Source of the DNA: Escherichia phage phT4A
Strand: one strand, 5' to 3'
Sequence record: NC_055712.1
DNA: 64,000 nucleotides
Below are positions 4,941 to 63,415 of this stretch, in pieces (within the stretch, counting starts at the first letter, position 1; every line of letters starts with the position of its first letter). The notes under the pieces were generated by a model, which had not been told where the DNA came from, did no database searches, and saw nothing but the letters and a program-made list of their open reading frames with translations. A program made the position numbers and the translations under genes.

Positions 4941-5040
4941 NNNNNNNNNNNNNNNNNNNNNNNNNNNNNNNNNNNNNNNNNNNNNNNNNNNNNNNNNNNN
5001 NNNNNNNNNNNNNNNNNNNNNNNNNNNNNNNNNNNNNNNN
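4941..5040. other. assembly gap (100 N)
   Basis: run of exactly 100 n. Confidence 0.99.
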
Positions 5041-7280: not shown

Positions 7281-8207
7281 TTATTTACGAGAATCGAAAA
7301 TCACTTTACCCGCATAATCCGAACCCATTACAGTTTGAGGTACGCCACCTTTATAGCGGGTAGAGTAGTTCATCTGTACATCCAGTTCTTTCCAGCGGAT
7401 CATTTCCGGTGTAATGGTGCGTTGCAGGGCGGCGTTGGCTTCTGCTTCTTTCTTCGCTGCATACAGACGGGCATCAGCATCACGTTCGTTAGCGATTGCA
7501 GCGTTTTCACGCGCCTGGCGATCGGCTTCCGCTTGTTTTACTGCTTGTAATGAAGTCTGTTCTACTTTTTGCAGTTCAGCTTTAGCAGCGTTAACCTGTT
7601 CTTCGCGGATCTTCGTGTTAGTTACCTGTTCCATGATAACTTCCGGCAGGGTGATATCCTGCAAGAATACCTGTTTCACAGTGTAACCGTAAGGCCGTGC
7701 ATAATCTTCTACTTCCTGCTGAATTGCGATTTGCAGTTGGTTTTGGATCTTCGCATCAAACAGGTCTTGCGCTTTTGGTACGGATTTACCAAATTCGCGA
7801 ACAGTGGAAAGCAGTTTTTCAGTTACATACTTATCCAGTGCCTGATCCTGATTACCCGCGTTGATACGGTTGATCGGTGCTTTGCTACCGTCGAATTGCA
7901 GCATTACGGTCATATCCACAGTGGATTTAAATTTATCCTGGGACGGAACCTGTAATTTGTCGAACTTCATCGCGATGTCTTTGGTGCTGAACGTATCAAA
8001 CGTTGCCAGCGGGTTTACAATGTGGAAACCAGGCAGTACGGGTTTCGGTGATACTTTACCCATGAAGGTTTCAGTTTTAACCGTACCGTCTTGCACAATG
8101 GTATACATGTTAGGCACTAACCACAGTGCTGCGACTACGCCCAGAGCGATCAGAGAGGTTTTCTTCGGGTTGTTCACGATAGTGTTTAAGTTCATCATAA
8201 TTTCCAT
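7281..8207 (-). CDS. SPFH/band-7 (HflK/C-stomatin-prohibitin-like) membrane protein
   Basis: N-terminal TM helix SLIALGVVAALWLV, SPFH-like core, Ala/Gln/Glu-rich coiled coil AKAELQKVEQTSLQAVKQAEADRQARENAAIANERDADARLYAAKKEAEANAALQR. Confidence 0.65.
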   Translation of the reverse strand: MEIMMNLNTIVNNPKKTSLIALGVVAALWLVPNMYTIVQDGTVKTETFMGKVSPKPVLPGFHIVNPLATFDTFSTKDIAMKFDKLQVPSQDKFKSTVDMTVMLQFDGSKAPINRINAGNQDQALDKYVTEKLLSTVREFGKSVPKAQDLFDAKIQNQLQIAIQQEVEDYARPYGYTVKQVFLQDITLPEVIMEQVTNTKIREEQVNAAKAELQKVEQTSLQAVKQAEADRQARENAAIANERDADARLYAAKKEAEANAALQRTITPEMIRWKELDVQMNYSTRYKGGVPQTVMGSDYAGKVIFDSRK

Positions 8208-8266: not shown

Positions 8267-8650
8267 TTAAGAAAGTTTTGTCAGCTTGTAGATTGTTTGA
8301 TAGCACAAGCCCTTAATCTCGTCCAGGATGTTCTTCAAAGAACTATCTACTGATTCGTAGATCTCGTTTGCTTCGTTGGCTATTTTACGGAGATACGCCA
8401 CCGTGTCAAGCACATTTTCGGTTTTTAGCACAGGTTTGTATCTTCCCGTGATTCCTATGTGGATTTCGGTGAATTTATCAACCAAATCCTGCATATCTTC
8501 GTAAAAACCCTCATATGCTTTATGTTGTGAGTATGAACCTGTTGCAAAATGTGCGCTATGCATATAGGTAACGGACATAAGGCACATGCCAATAAAGGCA
8601 TCTATCTTGCTTGAGTTCTCAGATTCTGTAATTTGTTTAAATGATTGCAT
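8267..8650 (-). CDS. hypothetical protein
   Basis: start moved to MQSFKQ with AAGGGA RBS. Confidence 0.4.
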   Translation of the reverse strand: MQSFKQITESENSSKIDAFIGMCLMSVTYMHSAHFATGSYSQHKAYEGFYEDMQDLVDKFTEIHIGITGRYKPVLKTENVLDTVAYLRKIANEANEIYESVDSSLKNILDEIKGLCYQTIYKLTKLS

Positions 8651-30203: not shown

Positions 30204-30827
30204 TCACTGATTTTTGAAGTATTCGATCTGACGCAAACGCTTTTCAGCGGCGGCTTTCGAATCGTATTCACCAAGTTCTTTTGTGTGATCGTGATTCAAA
30301 ACAACCCACTTATCGCCACGCTGTTCAATGTGTTCTGTAATATCTTTTAACGACTTATCCAGATCCAGTGATTCAGCCTCTTCACAGATAATAGTCAAAT
30401 CCACGGGCAGTGTCAACAACCTTTTTACTCCGCTGATATCATCAAGCATCGAATCGTATGCAAGGGTTACGTGCGGTTTGTAATCCGGATAATCGTATGT
30501 TGCGCCAGCATCAATAGAATCTTTGAAACGGCTATGCAGGTATTCAGATTCCAGGATCCCTACGATAGTGCTACCGTATTTTGTGTCCCACTTTTCAACA
30601 TCAACCAGTTTAGCAGGTTCTGTGATGTCCTGTTGCGGGAACAAATCAACCGTTTTCCGGCTGTATACGATCGTTGTATGCATCTTTTCGGCTGAAACAG
30701 CATTCTTTGTGATACCTAATGTCTTTTGAACATTTTTCAAAGCCTCACATGAAGCCTGATCGAATTTAGCACACATGTAGATACCAGGATCTACAACAGG
30801 TTTTGTGATTTCAAGAAATGATTTCAT
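30204..30827 (-). CDS. 57B: 2H phosphoesterase, T4 57B/Acb1-like
   Basis: two HxT motifs (MHTTIVY and PHVTLAY) typical of the 2H fold; position next to 57A and gene 1 as in T4. Confidence 0.55.
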   Translation of the reverse strand: MKSFLEITKPVVDPGIYMCAKFDQASCEALKNVQKTLGITKNAVSAEKMHTTIVYSRKTVDLFPQQDITEPAKLVDVEKWDTKYGSTIVGILESEYLHSRFKDSIDAGATYDYPDYKPHVTLAYDSMLDDISGVKRLLTLPVDLTIICEEAESLDLDKSLKDITEHIEQRGDKWVVLNHDHTKELGEYDSKAAAEKRLRQIEYFKNQ

Positions 30828-30878: not shown

Positions 30879-31151
30879 TTACGCTTCTTCGCCAAAGTCG
30901 GCTTCATCTTCCGCGCCTTTTTCGACTTCAACGGAAGGGATCAGAGCGGATACCGCGCCAATCACTGCTTCTGGGGTTACTGGCTGGCTTGCGTCAATAC
31001 CCAGTACCGAACACAGGTCGGACAGAAGTTGACGATGAACAGAGAGTTCACTTTCTTTTTGCGCGATTACTTCGTTCAGATCGAATGCGCGGCCTTTCAG
31101 TACCAGTACTTCATTTTGCAGTTTTTGAATATCAGACATTTTATTACCCAT
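30879..31151 (-). CDS. 57A: gp57A-like tail-fibre assembly chaperone
   Basis: small coiled-coil protein with acidic C-terminus immediately upstream of gene 1, as in T4. Confidence 0.5.
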   Translation of the reverse strand: MGNKMSDIQKLQNEVLVLKGRAFDLNEVIAQKESELSVHRQLLSDLCSVLGIDASQPVTPEAVIGAVSALIPSVEVEKGAEDEADFGEEA

Positions 31152-31153
31152 TG

Positions 31154-31849
31154 TTAAAATTTAAAAGTATCGAGCACTTTGCTCTTTAGTTGTTTCAAAG
31201 TACCTTCGTTAGTGATGATACTATCTCCCGGTTGAGGTGTCAAACCTTTTTCCGTGGAATGTTCATCAACAATTCCGGTATCTTTTACAATAAACACAAA
31301 CTTAGCACCCAAGCGTTTCAGGTATTTATATTCGTGTTCCTGACGACAGTCAGTTACCAGAAGATGATTGTATTCGTCACCAGCATATTTATTGACGAAT
31401 CTTTCCAGTGTGTAACGAACCCAAACCGTGTTATCATACTTGCATACGATATCAGTTCCAAACACTTGCATCAAGCGTCTGATACTCCAGGGAGTATCGT
31501 TACTCATAATCAGATTATCAATATCATCAGGACTATAAACAATATTGTATCCACGTTCTTTGAGGATTTCAAGCCCGATTTTGAAAATATTTAGAACATC
31601 TTCATTAGACATCACAAGAGGTTTCTCTCGATCACCTTCGTAAAAAATAGCATCCGGATCAGAATATTTTCCTTCAACCAGACTACGAATGTATGGTTTA
31701 GCGTAACCATATCGCTGCATTGCTACTCTTAGCGTTCTTTTGATACCAAATGCCAGTGCTTCACACTGAACATCATTGTACGCCTCTTGAATAAATTTAG
31801 CAACCGTATCTTTACCAGTTCGCTTTTTTCCACTAATCACATAAATCAT
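31154..31849 (-). CDS. 1: deoxynucleoside monophosphate kinase
   Basis: SGKKRTGKDT P-loop, WSIRRLMQVFGTD, ITNEGTLKQL; colinear with T4 gp1. Confidence 0.88.
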   Translation of the reverse strand: MIYVISGKKRTGKDTVAKFIQEAYNDVQCEALAFGIKRTLRVAMQRYGYAKPYIRSLVEGKYSDPDAIFYEGDREKPLVMSNEDVLNIFKIGLEILKERGYNIVYSPDDIDNLIMSNDTPWSIRRLMQVFGTDIVCKYDNTVWVRYTLERFVNKYAGDEYNHLLVTDCRQEHEYKYLKRLGAKFVFIVKDTGIVDEHSTEKGLTPQPGDSIITNEGTLKQLKSKVLDTFKF

Positions 31850-32379
31850 TAGCTCATTCTCTTTTGAGAAGTGACTACTTTTCCGTCAATTTCAACTTCC
31901 ATATGAAGGAAGCCAAAAGTTGCCATACACGTAACCGCTTCATCACTATCGTTAGTATAACCCAATTCAACCTCACCCAAGTTTGTTGGGAAGGCACCAT
32001 AAAATCTAAATGTGGCGATCGTTTTCATCTGGGAGTTATCCAGGATATGCACAGCGAATGATTGCTTAGGATCATCCCACGCAACAGAGTTAAACTCGTT
32101 GTAATCGTTTGTGCTCAACATCCATATGTAAATCCCAAGATACGATCTCATTTCCTCATCGACTACAAAGCGGATCATCAAAGGATCAAACTCAAAAGCC
32201 GAACCAGGTACTTTACCTCGAACCATCATATTTGCAGGAATATCAACTGCTGGGAGGTTCATTGATGGTAGTGTAACCCCTTGAACTTGTAAAGTCAAAC
32301 CTTTCATGTAACTGTTATCAGGAATATCAACCCGAAAGTTTGTAGGTGAGATTTGGTTTAAAATCATTTCTGTAGACAT
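31849..32379 (-). CDS. 3: tail completion / sheath stabiliser gp3
   Basis: 176 aa like T4 gp3; tail-tube-family motif FRFYGAFPTNLGEVELGYT resembling gp19. Confidence 0.7.
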   Translation of the reverse strand: MSTEMILNQISPTNFRVDIPDNSYMKGLTLQVQGVTLPSMNLPAVDIPANMMVRGKVPGSAFEFDPLMIRFVVDEEMRSYLGIYIWMLSTNDYNEFNSVAWDDPKQSFAVHILDNSQMKTIATFRFYGAFPTNLGEVELGYTNDSDEAVTCMATFGFLHMEVEIDGKVVTSQKRMS

Positions 32380-32458
32380 AGGATCTCCTTTCCTCTATTT
32401 AGCGGGGAACGGGATCAAAGCGGCCTGACGGGGTAATATAAAAATTTGAAGAAAATGC

Positions 32459-32487
32459 TTGACCTTTTAAAATCTTTGATCTATAAT
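32459..32487 (+). promoter_or_regulatory. sigma70-type early promoter P1
   Basis: TTGACC - 17 nt - TATAAT, AT-rich surroundings. Confidence 0.6.
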
Positions 32488-32574
32488 AATTATTAATTAA
32501 AATTTTATCAAAAAGATCTAACAAGATCAAGTAAAATTTAATAAATAATTTATCAAAAATTTTTAGATCTGATC

Positions 32575-32603
32575 TTGAATTCATAAATTTTATGATCTAT
32601 AAT
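32575..32603 (+). promoter_or_regulatory. sigma70-type early promoter P2
   Basis: TTGAAT - 17 nt - TATAAT. Confidence 0.55.
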
Positions 32604-32689
32604 ATATTAATATTTTATTTTATCATAAATTTTTATGAAGATCAATACTTAGATCTAATAAATTTTATGCTTTTTCTGAAAACTTTTCC

Positions 32690-32718
32690 TTTACCCCGTC
32701 ACTAAATACTGGTACTAT
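32690..32718 (+). promoter_or_regulatory. sigma70-type promoter P3 (plus CTAAATA late-like box at 32703)
   Basis: TTTACC - 17 nt - TACTAT about 30 nt upstream of ATG 32749. Confidence 0.4.
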
Positions 32719-32748
32719 GTTCCCATATTGGAAATCAGGAAAAACAAA

Positions 32749-33538
32749 ATGACTCACTTGAAAAAATTCAAAGAATTTCTGACCGAAGGTAAAACCCTCG
32801 CTCGTACCGTAGCACGTGGTCAACGCGCTAAAAACTTCCGATAAACATTCAATCGGTTTTCTTCACTTCAAACATGGTTCTGATTTCGAAGTTTTAGCAC
32901 CGGATTCTCACGATCTGGCATACTTCGGTAAAAACATTGTACGTTTGAAAGGTATGACTACTGGTAAAGTTCAAGCGGCTTATGTCGATTGGGCTAAAGG
33001 TACTGTTTCTTTCTACAGTGGCAATCCGGATGATGATCTGGATTTCGACAAACCAGAAAAATTCAAAGCTGCTACTCTGTATGAAGAGGCGGAAGAAAAT
33101 CTGGATCTGTATAACCAGTTAGCAGAAGATTTCGAAATCGAGATCCCTATGGATGAAGCTCTGGTGAAAGGTAAAGTTTACAAACTCCCAAGCAACGATA
33201 TGCGTCTTCTGTACACTGGGCGTTCTAAAACTAAAGCAAGCGGTGAATATGCAGTGTTTACCGTAGTTGATGCTTCCGGCAAACCTCGCCTAGTATCTGG
33301 TAAAAAATTCACCCAAGAATATAAAGGCGATATGGTTTCTAAACTGGTTCTGGCTGAATCCGAAGATCTGAATGAAGCGGCTAAAGGCATTCGCGAAAAA
33401 GTTATTGCTGTGATGGTGAAACGCGGGTTTAACGAAAAAGATGCAGAAAAGATGGTTGACAAAAACCTGAAAGATGCTATGAAAGTTAGACCTGGTGCGA
33501 CCCCTGGCAAACTTGCAGAAATAGTTAGCACCCTGTAA
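32749..33538 (+). CDS. internal-head-protein-like protein with capsid-targeting-like N-terminus; frame broken by one extra A in A5 run 32830-32834
   Basis: ATG at 32749 with AGGAAAAACAAAATG RBS; N-terminus MTHLKKFKEFLTE resembles T4 IP targeting sequence MKTYQEFIAE; frame open to 33538 after a +1 shift; strongly biased codon usage. Confidence 0.5.
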
Positions 33539-33544
33539 AAATAA

Positions 33545-33572
33545 AGCCCCTTCCTTTCGGTTGGGGCTTTTT
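33545..33572 (+). terminator. rho-independent terminator (bidirectional position)
   Basis: AGCCCC-TTCCTTTCGGTT-GGGGCT followed by TTTTT. Confidence 0.65.
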
Positions 33573-33574
33573 GA

Positions 33575-34429
33575 TTAGTATTTGCTCCAGACTTTTTTTG
33601 CGCCGTAAGGTTTCCCTTTGGACATAAATTGCTGAGTCGGTAGCCAAACAGCTTTCGCCCAATCTTTAGGGGCAATCTCTGCTAATGGTGATTTGAGGTG
33701 TGATGGTAGATATGCTTTGATCATTTCTGTTGCGCCTCGCATACCTTTCACGTTACCCCAGTTAATTTTAAGCACGGTCTTGTTAGAGAGGCGTTTAGTG
33801 GATCCGTACCCTCGCTTCAATAACTCTTCTAAAAACTCCTGTCGTGCTCTGGGTGGCGCATAGTGCAAGTTCAAACCATAGAACACTAAGTTACCCGCTT
33901 TCGATCTTCCGGATCCTAAGAAAATGATCAGTGGAAATCTATCCCAATACGGCAGGGTGTCTTTATATTTTGCATCATATGCAAACGTGTACAGGCGACC
34001 CGTTGCTGGTTTTGCCACACGGTGTGTTTTGATACTGGTTTTGATGAAATTACCAAACCATTCTGTTGAATCTTTCTGTCGCTTTGCCGCCGATACACCA
34101 ACAGTGATCTTTTTCAGACTATTACGGAAATCGTTGATGATCTCGATCCCGTGTTTTTTACGGTAGTCATTACGTTTTTTACGGGCTTCTGTCTCTGCGG
34201 AACGTCGTTCAATCTCATCATCAATCTGTTTTTTGTAACGATGCATTGACTTTGTGAACGTTGCGTAGTTTAATCCCTCAGAATCGGCAAAACGTTTAGC
34301 AGAAACACCTTTCGTTTTTGCCTTACGGAATTTGATCCCCAGTTCAACCCAATCACTCAATTTGCGTTTGGGTGGTGCTTTGGGTTTATCCTCTTCCGCG
34401 ATGATCTCAAACTCAAAAATAAAACTCAT
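33575..34429 (-). CDS. 2: DNA end protector protein gp2
   Basis: 284-aa basic protein between gp3 and gp4 as in T4. Confidence 0.6.
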   Translation of the reverse strand: MSFIFEFEIIAEEDKPKAPPKRKLSDWVELGIKFRKAKTKGVSAKRFADSEGLNYATFTKSMHRYKKQIDDEIERRSAETEARKKRNDYRKKHGIEIINDFRNSLKKITVGVSAAKRQKDSTEWFGNFIKTSIKTHRVAKPATGRLYTFAYDAKYKDTLPYWDRFPLIIFLGSGRSKAGNLVFYGLNLHYAPPRARQEFLEELLKRGYGSTKRLSNKTVLKINWGNVKGMRGATEMIKAYLPSHLKSPLAEIAPKDWAKAVWLPTQQFMSKGKPYGAKKVWSKY

Positions 34430-34444: not shown

Positions 34445-34912
34445 TTACTGACCTCGCCACCCAAAAACTTTTTTGAGTGATTCTTCTGTTACGATTTTGA
34501 ACTGCCAGCCTTTTTGACGGCATAGCTCATTTGCGGCTTTCCACTTATCAATATTAACTGTATAGGTGTAAAGAGCATCAATAAATTTCTTTTTATTGTG
34601 TACGTTGTTGTTTACTGGCTTCGGTGGAGGCATGGTTTCTTTAAGGGGCTTAACCTCCCAAAGATATGTAGTACCATTTTCCATTTCCACATAGAAATCC
34701 ATGTAATAGCGTCTTCTCTTACCGTCTGCATTGCAGAAATACGGGATCACTATACATTCAGAATTCCAACGTTTTACGTGTGGGTTTTTATCCAGCCACT
34801 TCATAACGTAGCGCTCCCACGATGACCTATACGTAATCTTTCGCGGATCGCCTTTATACTTCTGTATGTTTTCGGGTACAAACGACCCTTTATACGTCTG
34901 TCTTCCAGCCAT
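34445..34912 (-). CDS. 4: head completion protein gp4
   Basis: 155 aa, YRSSWERYVMKWLD region, position next to gene 53 as in T4. Confidence 0.65.
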   Translation of the reverse strand: MAGRQTYKGSFVPENIQKYKGDPRKITYRSSWERYVMKWLDKNPHVKRWNSECIVIPYFCNADGKRRRYYMDFYVEMENGTTYLWEVKPLKETMPPPKPVNNNVHNKKKFIDALYTYTVNIDKWKAANELCRQKGWQFKIVTEESLKKVFGWRGQ

Positions 34913-37337: not shown

Positions 37338-37437
37338 NNNNNNNNNNNNNNNNNNNNNNNNNNNNNNNNNNNNNNNNNNNNNNNNNNNNNNNNNNNNNNN
37401 NNNNNNNNNNNNNNNNNNNNNNNNNNNNNNNNNNNNN
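37338..37437. other. assembly gap (100 N)
   Basis: run of exactly 100 n. Confidence 0.99.
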
Positions 37438-49790: not shown

Positions 49791-51543
49791 ATGATCATCG
49801 ACAAATTAAACCCGTTGCCGAAGATCCCGTTTGTTGATGGCGTCCCAGATGACGCCACGACTCAAACGAAGATTATTTGGATCAAAAACGGTGAAACTCT
49901 GGACGGTTCGCCAGATAAAGTGTCAAACACTGGTAGTCTTAACCGAACTGGTGTAAACATCCAGCAGAACGCGGTTCAGTTAGAACAAAATACCATCACC
50001 CATAATGATAAAATCAACGAAGTAATCGATCAGGTTAACTTGATTACTGAAAACATTGATGCTATTGGTGATGAGAGCGTAATCAAAAAAAGTTAACCAG
50101 TTGGATCAGGATGTTCAGGCATTAACTTTATCTAACACCCAAACACAGAACAAGGTAGCACAGTTAACCCTTTCTGTAAATGCTCAGAACGATGAAATTG
50201 GGGAATACGATCCAGAAAAGGATCCTAAACACCGCACAATTCGTAATGATATCATTTACATTAAGAAAGAAGTTGGTTCATATCCTGGATTTAACGTTGA
50301 TGGTGATGTTGACCCCTCTTCTACTGGTACTGGCCTTAAATACCGCGTACTGAGTAACCAACGTGCTATTTCTATGCAGGAAACTCGCATAACCAAACTG
50401 GAAGATGATTGGGCGCTTTCCGAAGTAGGACAACTGACAGAAGAGGTAAAAGAACTTCGTGCTGAAATGGGTGATTCTGGTCTTGCCACAACCCGATCAA
50501 TCTATGCGCGAATCAAGATCCTTGAGGATGGTTCTATTGTAATGCAAAATGAACTTGATGCGATTAATAGTTATATCGGTCGCACGTCAGGTTCAACCAG
50601 TTCCATTAACGATCGTGTGAACAGTCTGGAAAACTCCGTTAGTTCTCTGGCTACACAAATCAATGATCCGGTAACTGGTATCACTGCACAAATTGCAACC
50701 ATTAACGGTCAAATCGGTACGGCTTCTGCTCAGGGTAGTATCCGTTATGATATTGCGGAAACTAAACGCAGATTGATGGATATGGAAATGATTCTGGGTG
50801 AATCCGGCGATGATGGATTGCAGGGACAAGTTGCGATCTTAACTGGTGACGTTGGTGAAGATTCAGATCCTACCAGTATCAAAGGCCGTTTGAGTGTTGT
50901 TGAGGGTGAATTACGCACCAACACTAGCGCACTCTGGGAACTGCAAGGCGTTGTAGGTAACTCTTCTAGTGGCCTCGTTGCAACTAGCCAGCAGATTAAC
51001 AAAGAAATCTATGGTGATGGTGTTAGTTCCGATCCTGTTACTCGCGCTGGTTTGAAAACAACAACCCGCAACCTGTTCACTCAGGTAGGAGATAACTCCG
51101 AAGGTAACGAAACGGGCATTTATGCACTGATTGCCGACCTTACTAAACGTGTTGAGGATTTAGAAGCGTTGAACATTGCACAGGCACTTGCAGATCGCGT
51201 AACTATCGAAGATCTGAATGCTAAACTGGCTCTGTACATCAAAGAAGCTGACGCCGATCTCCGTTATGAGAGCAAAAACCCGCCTCTGTCATTCGGTACT
51301 AACCTAACTGGTGATACTGAATACACTACTGGCGATCCATTGTCTCTAAGCGTAACTATGAATGGTGGTGTTTCTCCGCTGTCTTACCAGTGGACGAAAA
51401 ACGGCGTAAACGTTGGTACTGATGCTAACACATTTACCATCGATTCGCTACAGCCTTCTGATTCCGGAACTTACAAAGTAACGGTAACTGATGCAAGCCA
51501 TAAAGTCATCGTTTCTGATGAACTGGCGATCACTGTCGCTTAA
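49791..51543 (+). CDS. wac: fibritin (wac, whisker/neck fibre) with apparent +1 frame break at A7 run 50085-50091 and Ig-like C-terminal domain
   Basis: N-terminus LPKIPFVDGVPDD...IIWIKNGETL like T4 Wac; segmented coiled-coil body; C-terminus SYQWTKNGVNV...SGTYKVTVTD Ig-like; frames rejoin if one A is removed. Confidence 0.75.
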
Positions 51544-52517: not shown

Positions 52518-53132
52518 ATGCAATTTAGATTATATCTAGTAGAGTTTAAAACTTCTACGGGAATAAAAATATATGGAGGTAAACGCCATTCTCCATTTAA
52601 TGATCCTAGACATGATTGTTATTGCGGATCTGGGGTATACATCAAACGAGCATTAAAAAAATATGGAAGAGAATGTATTGTTAATATACAATGGTCAAAA
52701 CCGTTTCCAAACAAGGATTTATTAGCGGAAGCCGAAGAATTACTTGTTGATGAGTTGATAGCATCTTATGATAATTGTGTTAATTTAGTTCGTGGCGGTA
52801 AAGGAGGTGCTTCTTTTTATAATCCAGAAGATAACCCTAATTTTGGTTCTAAACGATCTATTGAATCTAAAATAAAGATGTCAGAAAAGGCAAAAAATAG
52901 GGTTTATAGCGAGGAAGGACTAAAACGAAGACAGGAAGCCACTAGGGTCATGATTCAACACAGAAAGCCTCGTGATGTTTCTGGAAGCAAAAACCCAGCC
53001 GCACGAAGGGTAATTGTGGATGGAGTAGAATACTCAACATTGAAAGAATGTGGAGATCATTACGGGATAACTAAAAACTCCGTCTTTAGTCGAATAAAAT
53101 CTAAGAAATGGGAGGGATGGAATTATGCGTGA
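52518..53132 (+). CDS. GIY-YIG homing endonuclease (seg-like) inserted between gp13 and gp14
   Basis: FRLYLVEF...IKIYGG GIY-YIG-like N-terminus, C-terminal DNA-binding tail RRVIVDGVEYSTLKECGDHYGITKNSVFSRIKSKKWEGW; markedly AT-rich; overlaps gp14 start. Confidence 0.7.
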   Translation: MQFRLYLVEFKTSTGIKIYGGKRHSPFNDPRHDCYCGSGVYIKRALKKYGRECIVNIQWSKPFPNKDLLAEAEELLVDELIASYDNCVNLVRGGKGGASFYNPEDNPNFGSKRSIESKIKMSEKAKNRVYSEEGLKRRQEATRVMIQHRKPRDVSGSKNPAARRVIVDGVEYSTLKECGDHYGITKNSVFSRIKSKKWEGWNYA

Positions 53133-53871
53133 TTGGGATGATAATTTATTCGCACAGTTGGAATCTGGCGAAGGTGTTGATAATAGTTTAAAAACGGAAG
53201 TTACTAACAAATACGTTAACTGGTACAAGTATAACCCTACTCAACAGTTACATGATTCACTAACAGCCGAAGCAATTCAAATGAAATCTCCGGATATGTA
53301 TTACGTCCGTCGAGAATTTGTTAATATTGATAAAATTTTGGGTGAAGACCGTGAATCGAAGTTTACAAAATCGTGGAAAATTGCAGCATACATCGATTCG
53401 TATGCAAACTACGAAGGACAGAGAGACTTTTACAGCAAATTCGGTATGATGTCAAACGATGAAATGACACTTGTGATCAATCCTCGTTTATTTGCACATC
53501 AAACTGATGGCGGGATCCCTGTTCTGGGGGATTTGATTTATTTCCCTATGGATAATAGCCTGTTTGAAATTACATGGATTGAGTTTGATCCGTTCTTCCA
53601 GTTCGGTGATCGTCCTCAACGTAAAATCAACCTCGTTAAATTTATCTATACTGGTGAAGAATTGGATCCTAAACTGCAACGAAATGAAGGGATTAACCTT
53701 GCTCCAGATGCTGATCTGGATCTCGAACCTATTCGAAATCTTGATGGATTGGCTGATACCAATATTGAACAATACGAAGAAGATCAAGCCTTTGAAGATG
53801 AAGGCGATGAATTCATTGAATCGTTTGATGTTGTTAACGGACGCGGATCACCGTTCGCACAGTTCCCATAA
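53125..53871 (+). CDS. 14: neck protein gp14
   Basis: DLIYFPMDNSLFEITWIE, FIYTGEELDPKLQRNEGIN colinear with T4 gp14. Confidence 0.9.
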   Translation: MRDWDDNLFAQLESGEGVDNSLKTEVTNKYVNWYKYNPTQQLHDSLTAEAIQMKSPDMYYVRREFVNIDKILGEDRESKFTKSWKIAAYIDSYANYEGQRDFYSKFGMMSNDEMTLVINPRLFAHQTDGGIPVLGDLIYFPMDNSLFEITWIEFDPFFQFGDRPQRKINLVKFIYTGEELDPKLQRNEGINLAPDADLDLEPIRNLDGLADTNIEQYEEDQAFEDEGDEFIESFDVVNGRGSPFAQFP

Positions 53872-59713: not shown

Positions 59714-61288
59714 ATGAACTTTTTTGGATTAGACAATGTGTTAGGGTTTTTCAAAAATTTCGCCAAACAGGATGAAATGGAATTTGAAGCCCAATTAAAA
59801 GATGATACAGGTTCGATTGCGCCTCCGAAAAATAACGACGGGGCGCACGAAATCGAAACGGACTTATCAAACCAGCGTTATTCTTCTGTGTTCCAACAGT
59901 TCTATTCCGGACAGGATCCGCGAATTCAGAACAAAACACAGCTAATAAATACATACCGTGGCATCATGACATACCCGGAAGTGGAAAACGCTGTTTCTGA
60001 AATCATTAACGAAGCGATTGTTAATGAACAAGGAAAAGATATTGTTACGATGGATCTTACTAAAACGAATTTTAGTAAAAATATCCAAGATAAGATCATG
60101 GAAGAACTCGATACCGTAATGAATATTCACGATTTCGATAACCGAGGCTCTCGTTTATTCCGTGATTGGTATGTTGATTCGCGTATCTATTTCCATAAAA
60201 TCATGCACAAAAATGAAGCTGACGGCATCAAAGAATTGCGCCAGTTAGATCCCCGTTGCATGGAACTGATCCGAGAATCGGTTACAGAAACCCTACCCGG
60301 TGGGGTTAAAATTTTCCGTGGCTATCGTGAATACTTCGTATACACCGCACCGAAAAACGGTTATAGCTACAACGGACAGATTTATAGTCACAATGACAAG
60401 GTAAAAATTCCTCGCTCTGCGATTGTTTACGCTCATAGCGGCCTTGAAGATTGCGACAACAACATTATAGGCTACCTGCACCGCGCGGTCAAGCCAGCTA
60501 ACCAGTTGCGTTTGCTGGAAGATGCTATGGTGATTTACCGTATTACCCGTGCGCCTGAACGTCGTGTGTTCTATATCGACGTAGGTCAGATGGGTGGCCC
60601 TAAAGCTACACAGTACGTAAATAACATTGCACAGGGCTTAAAAAACCGTGTTGTATATGACGCGAGCACTGGTAAAGTTAAGAATCAGCAAAATAACCTG
60701 TCAATGACAGAGGACTATTGGCTGATGCGTCGTGATGGTAAAGCAGTTACCGAAGTTTCAACGCTTCCTGGTGGCACTGCCTTCTCTGATATCGACGATG
60801 TTAAATGGTTTAACCGTAAGCTGTATGAAGCGTTGCGTATTCCGTTAAGCCGTATGCCTCGCGATGATGGCGGTATCCAGTTGGGTAACGATGGCGGTAT
60901 TACCCGCGACGAATTGAACTTTAGCAAATTTATTCGCGAATTGCAAATTCAATTCAACCCTGTTCTTGCGGATCCGTTAAAAACTAACTTGATCGCGAAG
61001 AAAATCATTACAGAAGATGAATGGGATGAAAACGTAAGTAAGATTGCTTTTGTATATCAGCAAGATTCTTACTATTCCGAAATCAAAGATATTGAGATTT
61101 TGGAACGCCGTTTAAACCTGATGGGCCAACTTGAAGGAGTGGTCGGCAAATATATCTCCCATAAATACGTAATGAAAGAAGTTCTCCGGATGTCTGATGA
61201 GGAAATTCAAAGCGAAGCCAAACAGATAGAAGAAGAATCAAAAGAAGAACGTTTTAAAAATCCAGAAGCGGAAGAGGAAAACTTTTGA
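59714..61288 (+). CDS. 20: portal vertex protein gp20
   Basis: 524 aa as in T4 gp20, synteny. Confidence 0.88.
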   Translation: MNFFGLDNVLGFFKNFAKQDEMEFEAQLKDDTGSIAPPKNNDGAHEIETDLSNQRYSSVFQQFYSGQDPRIQNKTQLINTYRGIMTYPEVENAVSEIINEAIVNEQGKDIVTMDLTKTNFSKNIQDKIMEELDTVMNIHDFDNRGSRLFRDWYVDSRIYFHKIMHKNEADGIKELRQLDPRCMELIRESVTETLPGGVKIFRGYREYFVYTAPKNGYSYNGQIYSHNDKVKIPRSAIVYAHSGLEDCDNNIIGYLHRAVKPANQLRLLEDAMVIYRITRAPERRVFYIDVGQMGGPKATQYVNNIAQGLKNRVVYDASTGKVKNQQNNLSMTEDYWLMRRDGKAVTEVSTLPGGTAFSDIDDVKWFNRKLYEALRIPLSRMPRDDGGIQLGNDGGITRDELNFSKFIRELQIQFNPVLADPLKTNLIAKKIITEDEWDENVSKIAFVYQQDSYYSEIKDIEILERRLNLMGQLEGVVGKYISHKYVMKEVLRMSDEEIQSEAKQIEEESKEERFKNPEAEEENF

Positions 61289-61531
61289 TGAAAGAATTTA
61301 TCGAAGCAATCAAAAGCGGTAATCTGGTGGAAGCTAAAAAAAACTTTTTACTCCATCATGGAAGACCGCAAAGAAGCGCTTCGTCACGAATTGCGCGTTG
61401 AACTTGCCGAAGCTGTACGCATCGAAGGCGAAGAAGACAAAGAAAAAGACGACGAAGGCGCTGATAAAGATGACGAAAATGGCGATAAAAAGCCAGCCGA
61501 GGATGATAAATCCGATAAAGATGATGAGTGA
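61288..61531 (+). CDS. 67: prohead core protein gp67, frame broken at A8 run 61336-61343
   Basis: MKEFIEAIKSGNLVEAKK then +1 shift into ...SIMEDRKEALRHE...acidic tail KDDE; resembles T4 gp67 MEGLIEAIKSNDLVAARK. Confidence 0.7.
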
Positions 61532-61946: not shown

Positions 61947-62594
61947 ATGAATGAATCCCAAATCAACGAAAACGGCGATATGCTTTTAATCGAAGAATGG
62001 GGTTTACCTTGCGGTGACGTTTCAGAATCTATTTTAGAATCTGTTGGGGAATCAAAAGACGGTAAATTGCGGATCGAAGGTATTTTCCTTCAAGCCGAAA
62101 AGGTTAACCGTAACCGTCGTTTGTATCCTAAAAACGTACTTGAAGAAGCAGTTAACGATTATATTAGAACTCAAGTTAACACCCGTCAAGCATTAGGTGA
62201 AATGAATCACCCTCCGCGCCCGAATGTGGATCCGCGAAATGCTTGCATCCTGATTGAAAAATTGTGGTGGAAGGGTAACGATGTTTGGGGCCGCGCTGTT
62301 GTTGTTGAAGGCGACGGTGGTGATGGTGACAAACTGGCGGCGTTGATTCGTGCTGGTTGGGTTCCTGGTGTTTCTTCCCGTGGATTAGGTAAGCTCTCCG
62401 ATTCCGGCAAAGGCTACGGCGTTGTACAAAAGGGCTTTAAATTAGCTGTAGGCGTTGATGTCGTCTGGGGGCCAAGCGCACCTGATGCATATGTTAAGCC
62501 TATAGTGGAAAATCAGCAAAGCAAACCGCTTGTTGAGAATAATAGTGCTGATGACGCTTTTCGGGAATTGTCCGAGCGTTTGAAAGGTCTATAA
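61947..62594 (+). CDS. 21: prohead core scaffold protein and protease gp21
   Basis: MNESQ..., LYPKNVLEEAVNDY, GEMNHPPRPNVDP, GWVPGVSSRGLG colinear with T4 gp21. Confidence 0.93.
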   Translation: MNESQINENGDMLLIEEWGLPCGDVSESILESVGESKDGKLRIEGIFLQAEKVNRNRRLYPKNVLEEAVNDYIRTQVNTRQALGEMNHPPRPNVDPRNACILIEKLWWKGNDVWGRAVVVEGDGGDGDKLAALIRAGWVPGVSSRGLGKLSDSGKGYGVVQKGFKLAVGVDVVWGPSAPDAYVKPIVENQQSKPLVENNSADDAFRELSERLKGL

Positions 62595-62626: not shown

Positions 62627-63415
62627 ATGCTTAAAGAACAACTGCTGGCGGAAGCCCAGAACCTGGATACTCCGGTCGAGTTAGACAGCATTTTCGAATC
62701 AGTTGAACTTTCTGATGACGTGAAAGCGACATTCACCACTGTATTCGAACAAGCTGTAAAAGCTGGCGCGGCAAAACTCGCTGAATCCCACATTACCCAG
62801 ATCGCGGAACGTTCCGACGAACTGGTCGAAGCTCAGGTAACTGAACGTGCCGCTGAAATCGAAACTAAGCTGTACGAAGATGCTGATAAATATTTTGCGC
62901 ACATTTCCGAAGAATGGCTGAAAGAAAACAAAGAAGCCGTTTCCCGTGACATCAAAGCAGATCTGTTTGAATCCCTGATCATGGGCCTCAAAGAAGTTCT
63001 GGTTGAACATAACGTTGTCATTCCGGAAGAACAGGTTGATGTAGTCGCCGAACTGGAAGACGAACTGACTGAGAATCAGCAGGAAGTTAAAACCCTGTTT
63101 GAAGCAAATCAGGAACTGACCAAAGAAATTTCAGAAATGAAACGCAATGCAGTAGTTTCAGAGAAAACTAAAGGTTTGACCGAATCTCAGGTCGAAAAAG
63201 TAGAATCTCTGATTGAAGGGCTGGAATATTCCGCAACCTTCGAAAATAAACTCAGCGCAATTGTTGAAATGGTAGCAACCAAAGCTGAAAAACCCGTTGA
63301 CGAGTCTGTAAATACTCCGCAAACGAAAGATGACTTTGTTCCGGTAGTCGAAAGTGTTCCGGCAGAGAAATCCAAGATCAATAAATATGTACAAGCGGCA
63401 AAAGCCCTTTCTTAA
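62627..63415 (+). CDS. 22: prohead core scaffold protein gp22
   Basis: 262-aa acidic coiled-coil protein, synteny. Confidence 0.85.
   Translation: MLKEQLLAEAQNLDTPVELDSIFESVELSDDVKATFTTVFEQAVKAGAAKLAESHITQIAERSDELVEAQVTERAAEIETKLYEDADKYFAHISEEWLKENKEAVSRDIKADLFESLIMGLKEVLVEHNVVIPEEQVDVVAELEDELTENQQEVKTLFEANQELTKEISEMKRNAVVSEKTKGLTESQVEKVESLIEGLEYSATFENKLSAIVEMVATKAEKPVDESVNTPQTKDDFVPVVESVPAEKSKINKYVQAAKALS

Follow-up and report, generated by a model that had tools for sequence, protein, structure and literature searches.

In a 64,000-nt stretch of the genome of Escherichia phage phT4A (NC_055712.1; hereafter the window), a plus-strand gene at 32749-33538 lies between the minus-strand genes gp3 and gp2 and, after removal of one A from its coding sequence, encodes a 262-aa protein that is probably a T4-type internal head protein of high abundance. 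The case is built on what can be read in the DNA, namely an N-terminal leader, the gene for the prohead protease, promoter and terminator motifs, codon bias, synteny and a frameshift best explained as an assembly artefact. An earlier note on this DNA had drawn attention to a plus-strand gene with no T4 counterpart between genes 3 and 2, and this holds: T4 has the same local gene order, but its genes 3 and 2 are only ~106 bp apart, with no gene there. Nearly all of the coordinates given then also stand, except that the ATG is at 32749 and not, one base off, at 32750.

A predicted capsid-targeting leader

For packaging, the first 10 residues of the T4 internal protein IPIII are enough; targeting depends on leader positions 4 and 7, processing depends on positions 8 and 10, and the prohead protease gp21 cuts after L/I-x-E (PMC9026906). 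With the cut marked by an arrow, the leaders in the T4 record are MKTFKEFTSTTTPVSTITE↓A for IPI and MKTYQEFIAE↓A for IPII and IPIII. The corresponding residues of the phT4A protein, MTHLKKFKEFLTE (32749-32787, plus strand), are predicted to act as both propeptide and capsid-targeting sequence and to be cut off by gp21 after LTE13. Family members start with MKSFKELLSE↓S, MKTFKELITE↓S, MKNFKEFLNE↓V or MKQFKQFLSE↓V, and the Slopekvirus form, to which the window protein belongs, reads (MTH)LKKFKEFLTE↓G. Position 4 is aromatic and position 7 hydrophobic in the family alignment (F4 and L/F7 in the homologues; F7 and F10 in the window protein, in the same register offset by 3 residues), and 15 of 17 members share an L/I-x-E in one alignment column, LTE13↓G in the window protein. 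We predict that this N terminus is a T4-type capsid-targeting sequence with all four functional positions satisfied. The resemblance had been pointed out before, and homologues from other genera strengthen it: their leaders match those of IPI and IPII/IPIII, of which MTHLKKFKEFLTE is a slightly atypical form, and the MKTFKE of one homologue is identical to the start of IPI. Internal proteins are alike in the leader and unlike beyond it (PMC12373910), and a sequence comparison of the mature part with Ip1-3 gave no similarity beyond the leader.

The predicted processing enzyme, a gp21 prohead protease of the Peptidase_S77 family (E 1.9e-73), is encoded at 61947-62594 on the plus strand, and the scaffold core gene gp22 is present in the same genome at 62627-63415. 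The gp23 maturation site is kept as well, as FLAE↓AEIAGDHGY (L-A-E↓A). The same kind of leader is found on two unrelated proteins of this phage. One is a 127-aa DUF5856 protein of phrog_858 (8267-8650, minus strand), which starts MQSFKQITE↓S with an I-x-E site; the family is annotated as 'starvation-inducible transcriptional regulator', and this Dps-like protein is a second candidate packaged protein. The other, located outside the window, is a 279-aa Zeta_toxin-like P-loop protein (Pfam E 2.8e-7) on the minus strand of PMBT1 (LT607758.1, 143619-144458; L005 38620-39459), which starts MKSFKQFTESTLTE↓A, has an ATAAATA late box ~30 nt upstream and is a candidate injected zeta-like kinase. These two further candidates suggest an injected proteome larger than that of T4.

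Predicted late and early expression signals

The motif CTAAATA occurs seven times in the window, on both strands, and four of these copies lie 23-47 nt upstream of gp3, gp53, gp6 and the gene studied here. The copy at 32702-32708 (plus strand), 47 nt before the ATG, is probably a real late promoter, in line with its earlier description as a late-like box. Another at 32396-32402 (minus strand) precedes the gp3 start (32379) by 23 nt, two more lie ahead of gp53 (34923) and gp6 (38907), and other late genes carry TATAAATA. The homologous position is occupied by ATAAATA in RB43 and GAP161 and by TATAAATA in vB_Mm5, so that a late-type box is found 40-47 nt before the ATG in phT4A and all three of these phages. 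A Shine-Dalgarno sequence, AGGA, lies at 32737-32740 (plus strand), 8 nt before the ATG; its spacing favours this codon over the TTG at codon 4, which we considered as a start that would give MKKFKEFLTE.

The strongly biased codon usage and the strong terminator attributed to this gene in the earlier note are both borne out. With a frequency of optimal codons (Fop) of 0.731, the repaired gene is level with the scaffold, tube and sheath genes (gp22, 0.739; gp19, 0.722; gp18, 0.695), most other scored genes falling at 0.43-0.63. The gene is predicted to be heavily expressed, and its Fop is in keeping with a copy number in the hundreds per head. A 308-aa SPFH/band-7-like membrane protein (7281-8207, minus strand), with a near-consensus sigma-70 promoter upstream (TTGACA-16-TAGAAT), also has an Fop on par with structural genes (0.724). 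Downstream, the 36 bp between the convergent stop codons of our gene and gp2 are occupied by a GC-rich hairpin (33543-33570) with T-runs on both strands, which together make an intrinsic terminator common to the two genes (33543-33575). Because it folds stably and has T-runs on both strands (-16.9 kcal/mol, z -3.0, on the plus strand; -16.4 kcal/mol on the minus strand), we read it as bidirectional; an internal 2x2 loop is the reason why a simple terminator scan does not see it.

Early transcription is suggested by sigma-70-type sites, scored as matches out of 12 to -35 and -10 hexamers near consensus with a spacing of 16-18 nt. Three tandem promoters had been proposed here, and two of them are strong: P1 (TTGACC-17-TATAAT, 32459-32487, plus strand) scores 11/12 and P2 (TTGAAT-17-TATAAT, 32575-32603, plus strand) 10/12, placing both among the only seven plus-strand sites of the 64 kb that score 10/12 or more. 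The third, P3 (TTTACC-17-TACTAT, 32690-32718, plus strand), is a weak site at 8/12, under the scan threshold. P2 is a duplicate of P1: a ~116-bp direct repeat (families D1 and D2), present as a tandem duplication, carries one of the promoters in each copy. Both are specific to Slopekvirus; RB43 and GAP161 lack the two strong promoters. The late box of our gene sits inside the P3 spacer, and in RB43, GAP161 and vB_Mm5 it likewise sits within the spacer of a sigma-70-like site, with TTGATC as the -35 hexamer. Given that this layout is the same as that of P3, the overlapping early/late promoter looks ancestral, and P1 and P2 seem to have been added in Slopekvirus. A further promoter-like site on the minus strand (TTGATA-17-TATTAT, 32483-32511, 10/12) faces gp3, gp1, 57A and acb1; it could drive their early transcription and make the region a divergent early-promoter hub. 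MotA-box middle promoters were also considered and rejected, as the spacing is wrong.

A small family with exchangeable C-terminal modules

The intact product belongs to phrog_7322, which has no assigned function. Depositors annotate its members as hypothetical (KP15_152, KP27_206, RB43ORF200w, GAP161_183) or, in a few records, as 'tail completion protein', a label apparently transferred from the neighbouring gp3. The family is small, with 14 clusters in 5.8 billion proteins, and a profile search of 1.84 billion representative proteins returned only 13 matches, all phage-like. Sequence searches of Pfam, NCBIfam, PADLOC and the PDB, with both the single sequence and a profile, gave no significant match.

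We obtained two AlphaFold models at a predicted local distance difference test (pLDDT) score of ~73, one for the window-type protein (AlphaFold2, mean 72.7) and one for a variant with an alternative C terminus. In the window-type model, the leader is disordered and is followed by a β-rich domain with a helix (20-127), a second β domain (143-196) and a three-helix bundle (214-261), joined by low-confidence linkers at 127-136 and 204-211. No catalytic fold is seen in it. Weak fold matches point to SH3/Tudor/KOW/CarD-like barrels and RuvA domain III, and a BFVD structure search returned family members and one uncharacterised protein of Vibrio phage nt-1, and nothing else. A chain of small domains on low-confidence linkers could plausibly pass the tail channel.

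The N-terminal domain is the conserved part of the family and carries the near-invariant motif DSHDLAYFGK..VRLKG.TTGK, and the C-terminal parts are swapped among at least three module types. One of these, a 50-aa helical module, matches phrog_9411 and occurs elsewhere as a free-standing small gene, for example in an RB43 early-gene cluster. A free-standing 77-aa protein in an early-gene cluster of RB43-GVA (HE981739.1; L012 1126-1359) is ~53% identical to the Slopekvirus C-terminal three-helix module; the RB43 protein at the gp3/gp2 locus itself lacks that module. Both flexible linkers contain conserved L/I-x-E↓A/S sites (E136 in 10 of 17 members, E203 in each of the 12 with a middle domain, E209 in 9), at which gp21 might also separate the modules. 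The tripeptide L-x-E is common, however, and T4 proteins contain many copies that stay uncut.

Packaged or cytoplasmic

From these features we infer packaging, cleavage, ejection and function as follows. The protein would be made late from the CTAAATA promoter, as well as early from the sigma-70 promoters. Through its 13-residue leader it would dock on the prohead's gp22 scaffolding core, where gp21 would cut after Leu-Thr-Glu13 and possibly also at both flexible linkers. The mature ~27.6 kDa protein, with its three small domains in a row, would stay in the head beside the DNA and be ejected with it into the cell, to be active in the first seconds of infection, and the early promoters on the incoming genome would top up the supply. 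Ready-made arrival, coupled with strong immediate-early transcription of the gene, suggests that the function is required from the very first seconds.

By analogy with Ip1-3, the likeliest job would be to neutralise a host defence or to take over a host function. Ip1-3 all inhibit GmrSD type IV restriction enzymes (PMC12373910), and Slopekviruses have been reported to carry an unknown DNA modification (PMC5219037). The earlier note had proposed an injected anti-defence effector. The internal-protein half of that proposal stands, on the strength of the leader, and we judge it reasonably probable that the protein is packaged in the head; the anti-defence half draws on analogy, with no homology beyond the leader and no fold or family match indicative of an activity, and we treat it as possible if doubtful.

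Several points weigh against an internal head protein. The structure and profile searches gave no sign of any activity, and our literature search found no virion proteomics or N-terminal sequencing for Slopekvirus or Pseudotevenvirus (KP15, KP27, phiEap-3, vB_EcRAM-01, RB43ORF200w). The Slopekvirus leader has three extra residues (MTH) ahead of the canonical register, and that of the most distant homologue, from vB_Mm5 (MGFKSFIEK), has no canonical L/I-x-E. Short A/T-rich MK.F.. starts could in part reflect selection on translation initiation, and the Acb1 homologue of this phage starts with MKSFLEITKP, which resembles the leader and lacks the cleavage motif. The protein is also larger than IPI-III, its gene is conserved and syntenic, unlike the fast-turnover ip loci of T-even phages, and a protein that is purely structural or packaged has no need of strong sigma-70 promoters.

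A rival reading is that the protein is an abundant early and late cytoplasmic product that is never packaged, acting for example in host takeover or binding the nucleoid or RNA polymerase, with MK.FKE.L.E a feature of the family or of translation initiation. The two very strong sigma-70 promoters, the generic interaction modules suggested by the weak fold matches, the C-terminal module that stands free in an early-gene cluster and the similar start of the Acb1 homologue all agree with such a role. Against it, all four functionally mapped leader positions are conserved, the leader recurs on two unrelated proteins of the phage, a late box is present at each homologous locus examined and codon bias is like that of virion components. 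We consider a purely cytoplasmic protein unlikely, and continue to favour an internal head protein.

An AT-rich, GATC-dense promoter island

P1, P2 and P3 lie in a 370-bp island between gp3 and the gene (32380-32748). The island had been described as AT-rich and GATC-dense, and both properties are pronounced: no other real stretch of the window is as AT-rich (13% GC per 200 bp, the next two minima being 100-N gaps), and it is also the window's densest GATC cluster, with 10 sites in 32380-32748 against ~0.8 expected from base composition and a window median of 2 per 300 bp. A GATC abuts the -10 hexamer of both P1 and P2, and the phage encodes a Dam methylase (PMBT1 151831-152682). The GATC cluster, like the strong promoters, is absent from RB43 and GAP161. 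The island is flanked by an inverted repeat whose left arm (32426-32467; 42 nt, 74% complementary) begins with an 11-mer, TGACGGGGTAA (32426-32436), that pairs perfectly with TTACCCCGTCA in the right arm (32691-32701). This 11-mer pair occurs only here in the entire Slopekvirus genome. At the same position in RB43 and GAP161, an AT-rich core is bracketed by inverted repeats of unrelated sequence (L010 1569-1582 and 1701-1714), an architecture that is kept across RB43, GAP161 and Slopekvirus without sequence conservation. Short open reading frames (ORFs) annotated in the island in some records (32399-32584, minus strand; 32592-32705, plus strand) are AT-rich chance ORFs that overlap the promoters.

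In the record of Klebsiella phage CPRSB, which is heavily frameshifted, the island (L011 1120-1515, aligned with 32370-32760 of the window) differs from phT4A mostly at GATC sites, mainly by G>A or C>T. These differences look like base-calling error at Dam-methylated sites, and would be an indirect sign of GATC methylation.

The GATC enrichment, the Dam gene and the inverted repeats raise methylation-timed promoter control or an origin function as possibilities. One elaboration of the internal-protein reading takes in both the island and the modules: the leader-tagged N-terminal domain (14-130) would be a carrier that loads interchangeable C-terminal modules, gp21 would cut the linkers so that several free mini-effectors are injected, and a Dam/SeqA-sensitive island would renew the supply only while the incoming DNA is unreplicated and fully methylated. 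The swapped modules and the conserved linker sites are consistent with this scheme, and the frequency of uncut L-x-E sites in T4 argues for caution; we regard it as improbable in full.

It is more improbable still that the gene is a mere neighbour of an island that is more than a promoter cluster, whether a Dam/SeqA-timed switch or an R-loop-type origin in which a promoter is followed by a DNA-unwinding element, as in T4 oriF and oriG. The excess of GATC sites, the low GC content, the GATC next to both -10 hexamers in a phage that encodes Dam, the flanking inverted repeats and the proximity of T4 oriE, in gene 5, speak for such a role. Against it, the island has only poor matches to DnaA and IHF sites and no convincing DnaA or iteron motifs, RB43 and GAP161 do without the GATC cluster and the strong promoters, and a promoter role by itself explains the island.

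A conserved locus in a draft assembly

Many Klebsiella Slopekvirus genomes, among them Roth22, PMBT1, KP15 and phiEap-3, match the 1.2-kb region at 99.9% identity, and the window is a draft Slopekvirus genome in a scaffolded assembly. The gene order is Acb1/57B homologue (30204-30827), 57A (30879-31151), gp1 dNMP (deoxynucleoside monophosphate) kinase (31154-31849) and the tail gene gp3 (31849-32379), all on the minus strand, then the island and the gene, followed by the head gene gp2 (33575-34429) and gp4 (34445-34912), both on the minus strand, and by gp53 and gp5 on the plus strand. The 57B homologue is an Acb1 protein, active against the cyclic-oligonucleotide-based antiphage signalling system (Pfam E 2e-47); T4 57B starts with MMEFKDFSTG and, like this homologue, is IPI-leader-like with no L/I-x-E at positions 8-10. 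Elsewhere in the window, a 204-aa ORF between gp13 and gp14 (52518-53132, plus strand) falls in a ~670-bp segment with no PMBT1 counterpart (52524-53196 unaligned), which is probably a homing-endonuclease-type insertion.

Although the earlier note had stressed that T4 internal proteins are hypervariable, this gene occupies a conserved, syntenic slot and only its C-terminal modules vary. The family extends over Slopekvirus, Pseudotevenvirus (RB43, RB16, GAP161, Miller), Yersinia phage JC221, Pantoea phage Phynn and Morganella phage vB_Mm5, and in each locus examined (Slopekvirus, Pseudotevenvirus, an uncultured relative and vB_Mm5) the gene is beside and convergent with gp2. Its position next to gp3 and gp2 and the name in a few records might suggest a tail or neck assembly protein, but we find this very improbable, given that the protein has no similarity to tail families in Pfam or PHROGs, that the name seems to have been carried over from gp3, that T4 builds tails without such a gene and that swapping of C-terminal modules is atypical of a structural adaptor.

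As had been noted, the ORF as assembled is broken by one extra A in an A5 run at 32830-32834 and ends at 32844; in Roth22, PMBT1 and Snake_ER16 the run is A4 and the 789-nt ORF is unbroken. Over ~34 kb, a blastn comparison with PMBT1 gave exactly three 1-nt indels, each an additional A in an A-run: at 32830 on the plus strand in our gene (A4 to A5), at 50085 in wac (49791-51543; A6 to A7) and at 61336 in the prohead-core gene gp67 (~61288-61531; A7 to A8). As a phage with both gp67 and wac broken is implausible, these are homopolymer sequencing or assembly errors, and the frameshift is almost certainly an assembly artefact rather than biology. Programmed frameshifting or transcriptional slippage at the A-run can be set aside, with the inspected relatives in frame at A4 and A5 short for slippage. 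A true pseudogene in phT4A, making only a 31-aa peptide as the assembled stop would imply, is scarcely credible in a scaffold with two 100-N gaps (4941-5040 and 37338-37437), where the other extra A residues hit wac and gp67, most protein-search records match the full length and no further substitutions have accumulated.

Comparison with known systems

T4's three internal proteins each disable a different type IV restriction enzyme (PMC12373910), and these results make capsid-targeted proteins a productive place to seek counter-defence activities. The present family is conserved in Slopekvirus and Pseudotevenvirus phages that are being collected for therapy against Klebsiella, Enterobacter and Cronobacter. 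If injected, the protein is probably a host-range determinant, and its leader could serve to package foreign proteins in these phages, an approach already taken with T4.

Like T4 IPI-III, the protein has an N-terminal leader of 10-19 residues ending in L/I-x-E, is encoded in a T4-like phage with a gp21 protease by a non-essential-looking accessory gene with its own promoters, and is predicted to reach a high copy number; as among the T4 proteins, the leader is the sole similarity between members. It differs in that its mature part has no homology to theirs and falls in another PHROG family, in its larger size (27.6 kDa mature, in three domains), in its location, which is between gp3 and gp2 and not at the ip hotspots of T-even phages, and in being kept across genera instead of hypervariable. 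Ip1-3 are inhibitors of GmrSD (PMC12373910); for the phT4A protein, packaging is a prediction.

A second comparison is with T4 Alt, a larger injected head protein that gp21 processes at both ends (PMC9026906). Alt is a packaged ADP-ribosyltransferase with the early paralogues ModA and ModB, and the shared principle would be an activity delivered pre-made and backed by early transcription. We detected no ADP-ribosyltransferase fold or motif in the phT4A protein, however, and here one gene, rather than paralogues, would give both supplies.

As a genetic unit, the gene also resembles morons and the promoter-early stem-loop (PeSL) cassettes that Arbiol et al. reportedly described in 2010 (Genome Biol Evol) in RB49-type phages: it is self-contained, with strong sigma-70 promoters and a terminator, stands in opposite orientation within a conserved late-gene block and has a duplicated promoter unit. 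Unlike these, it is anciently fixed at its site in several genera, and the flanking 11-mer is unique in the genome. Taken together, we propose the protein as a candidate, uncharacterised addition to the known class of capsid-targeted injected proteins, one that would be set apart by its conservation, its synteny and its modular C termini.

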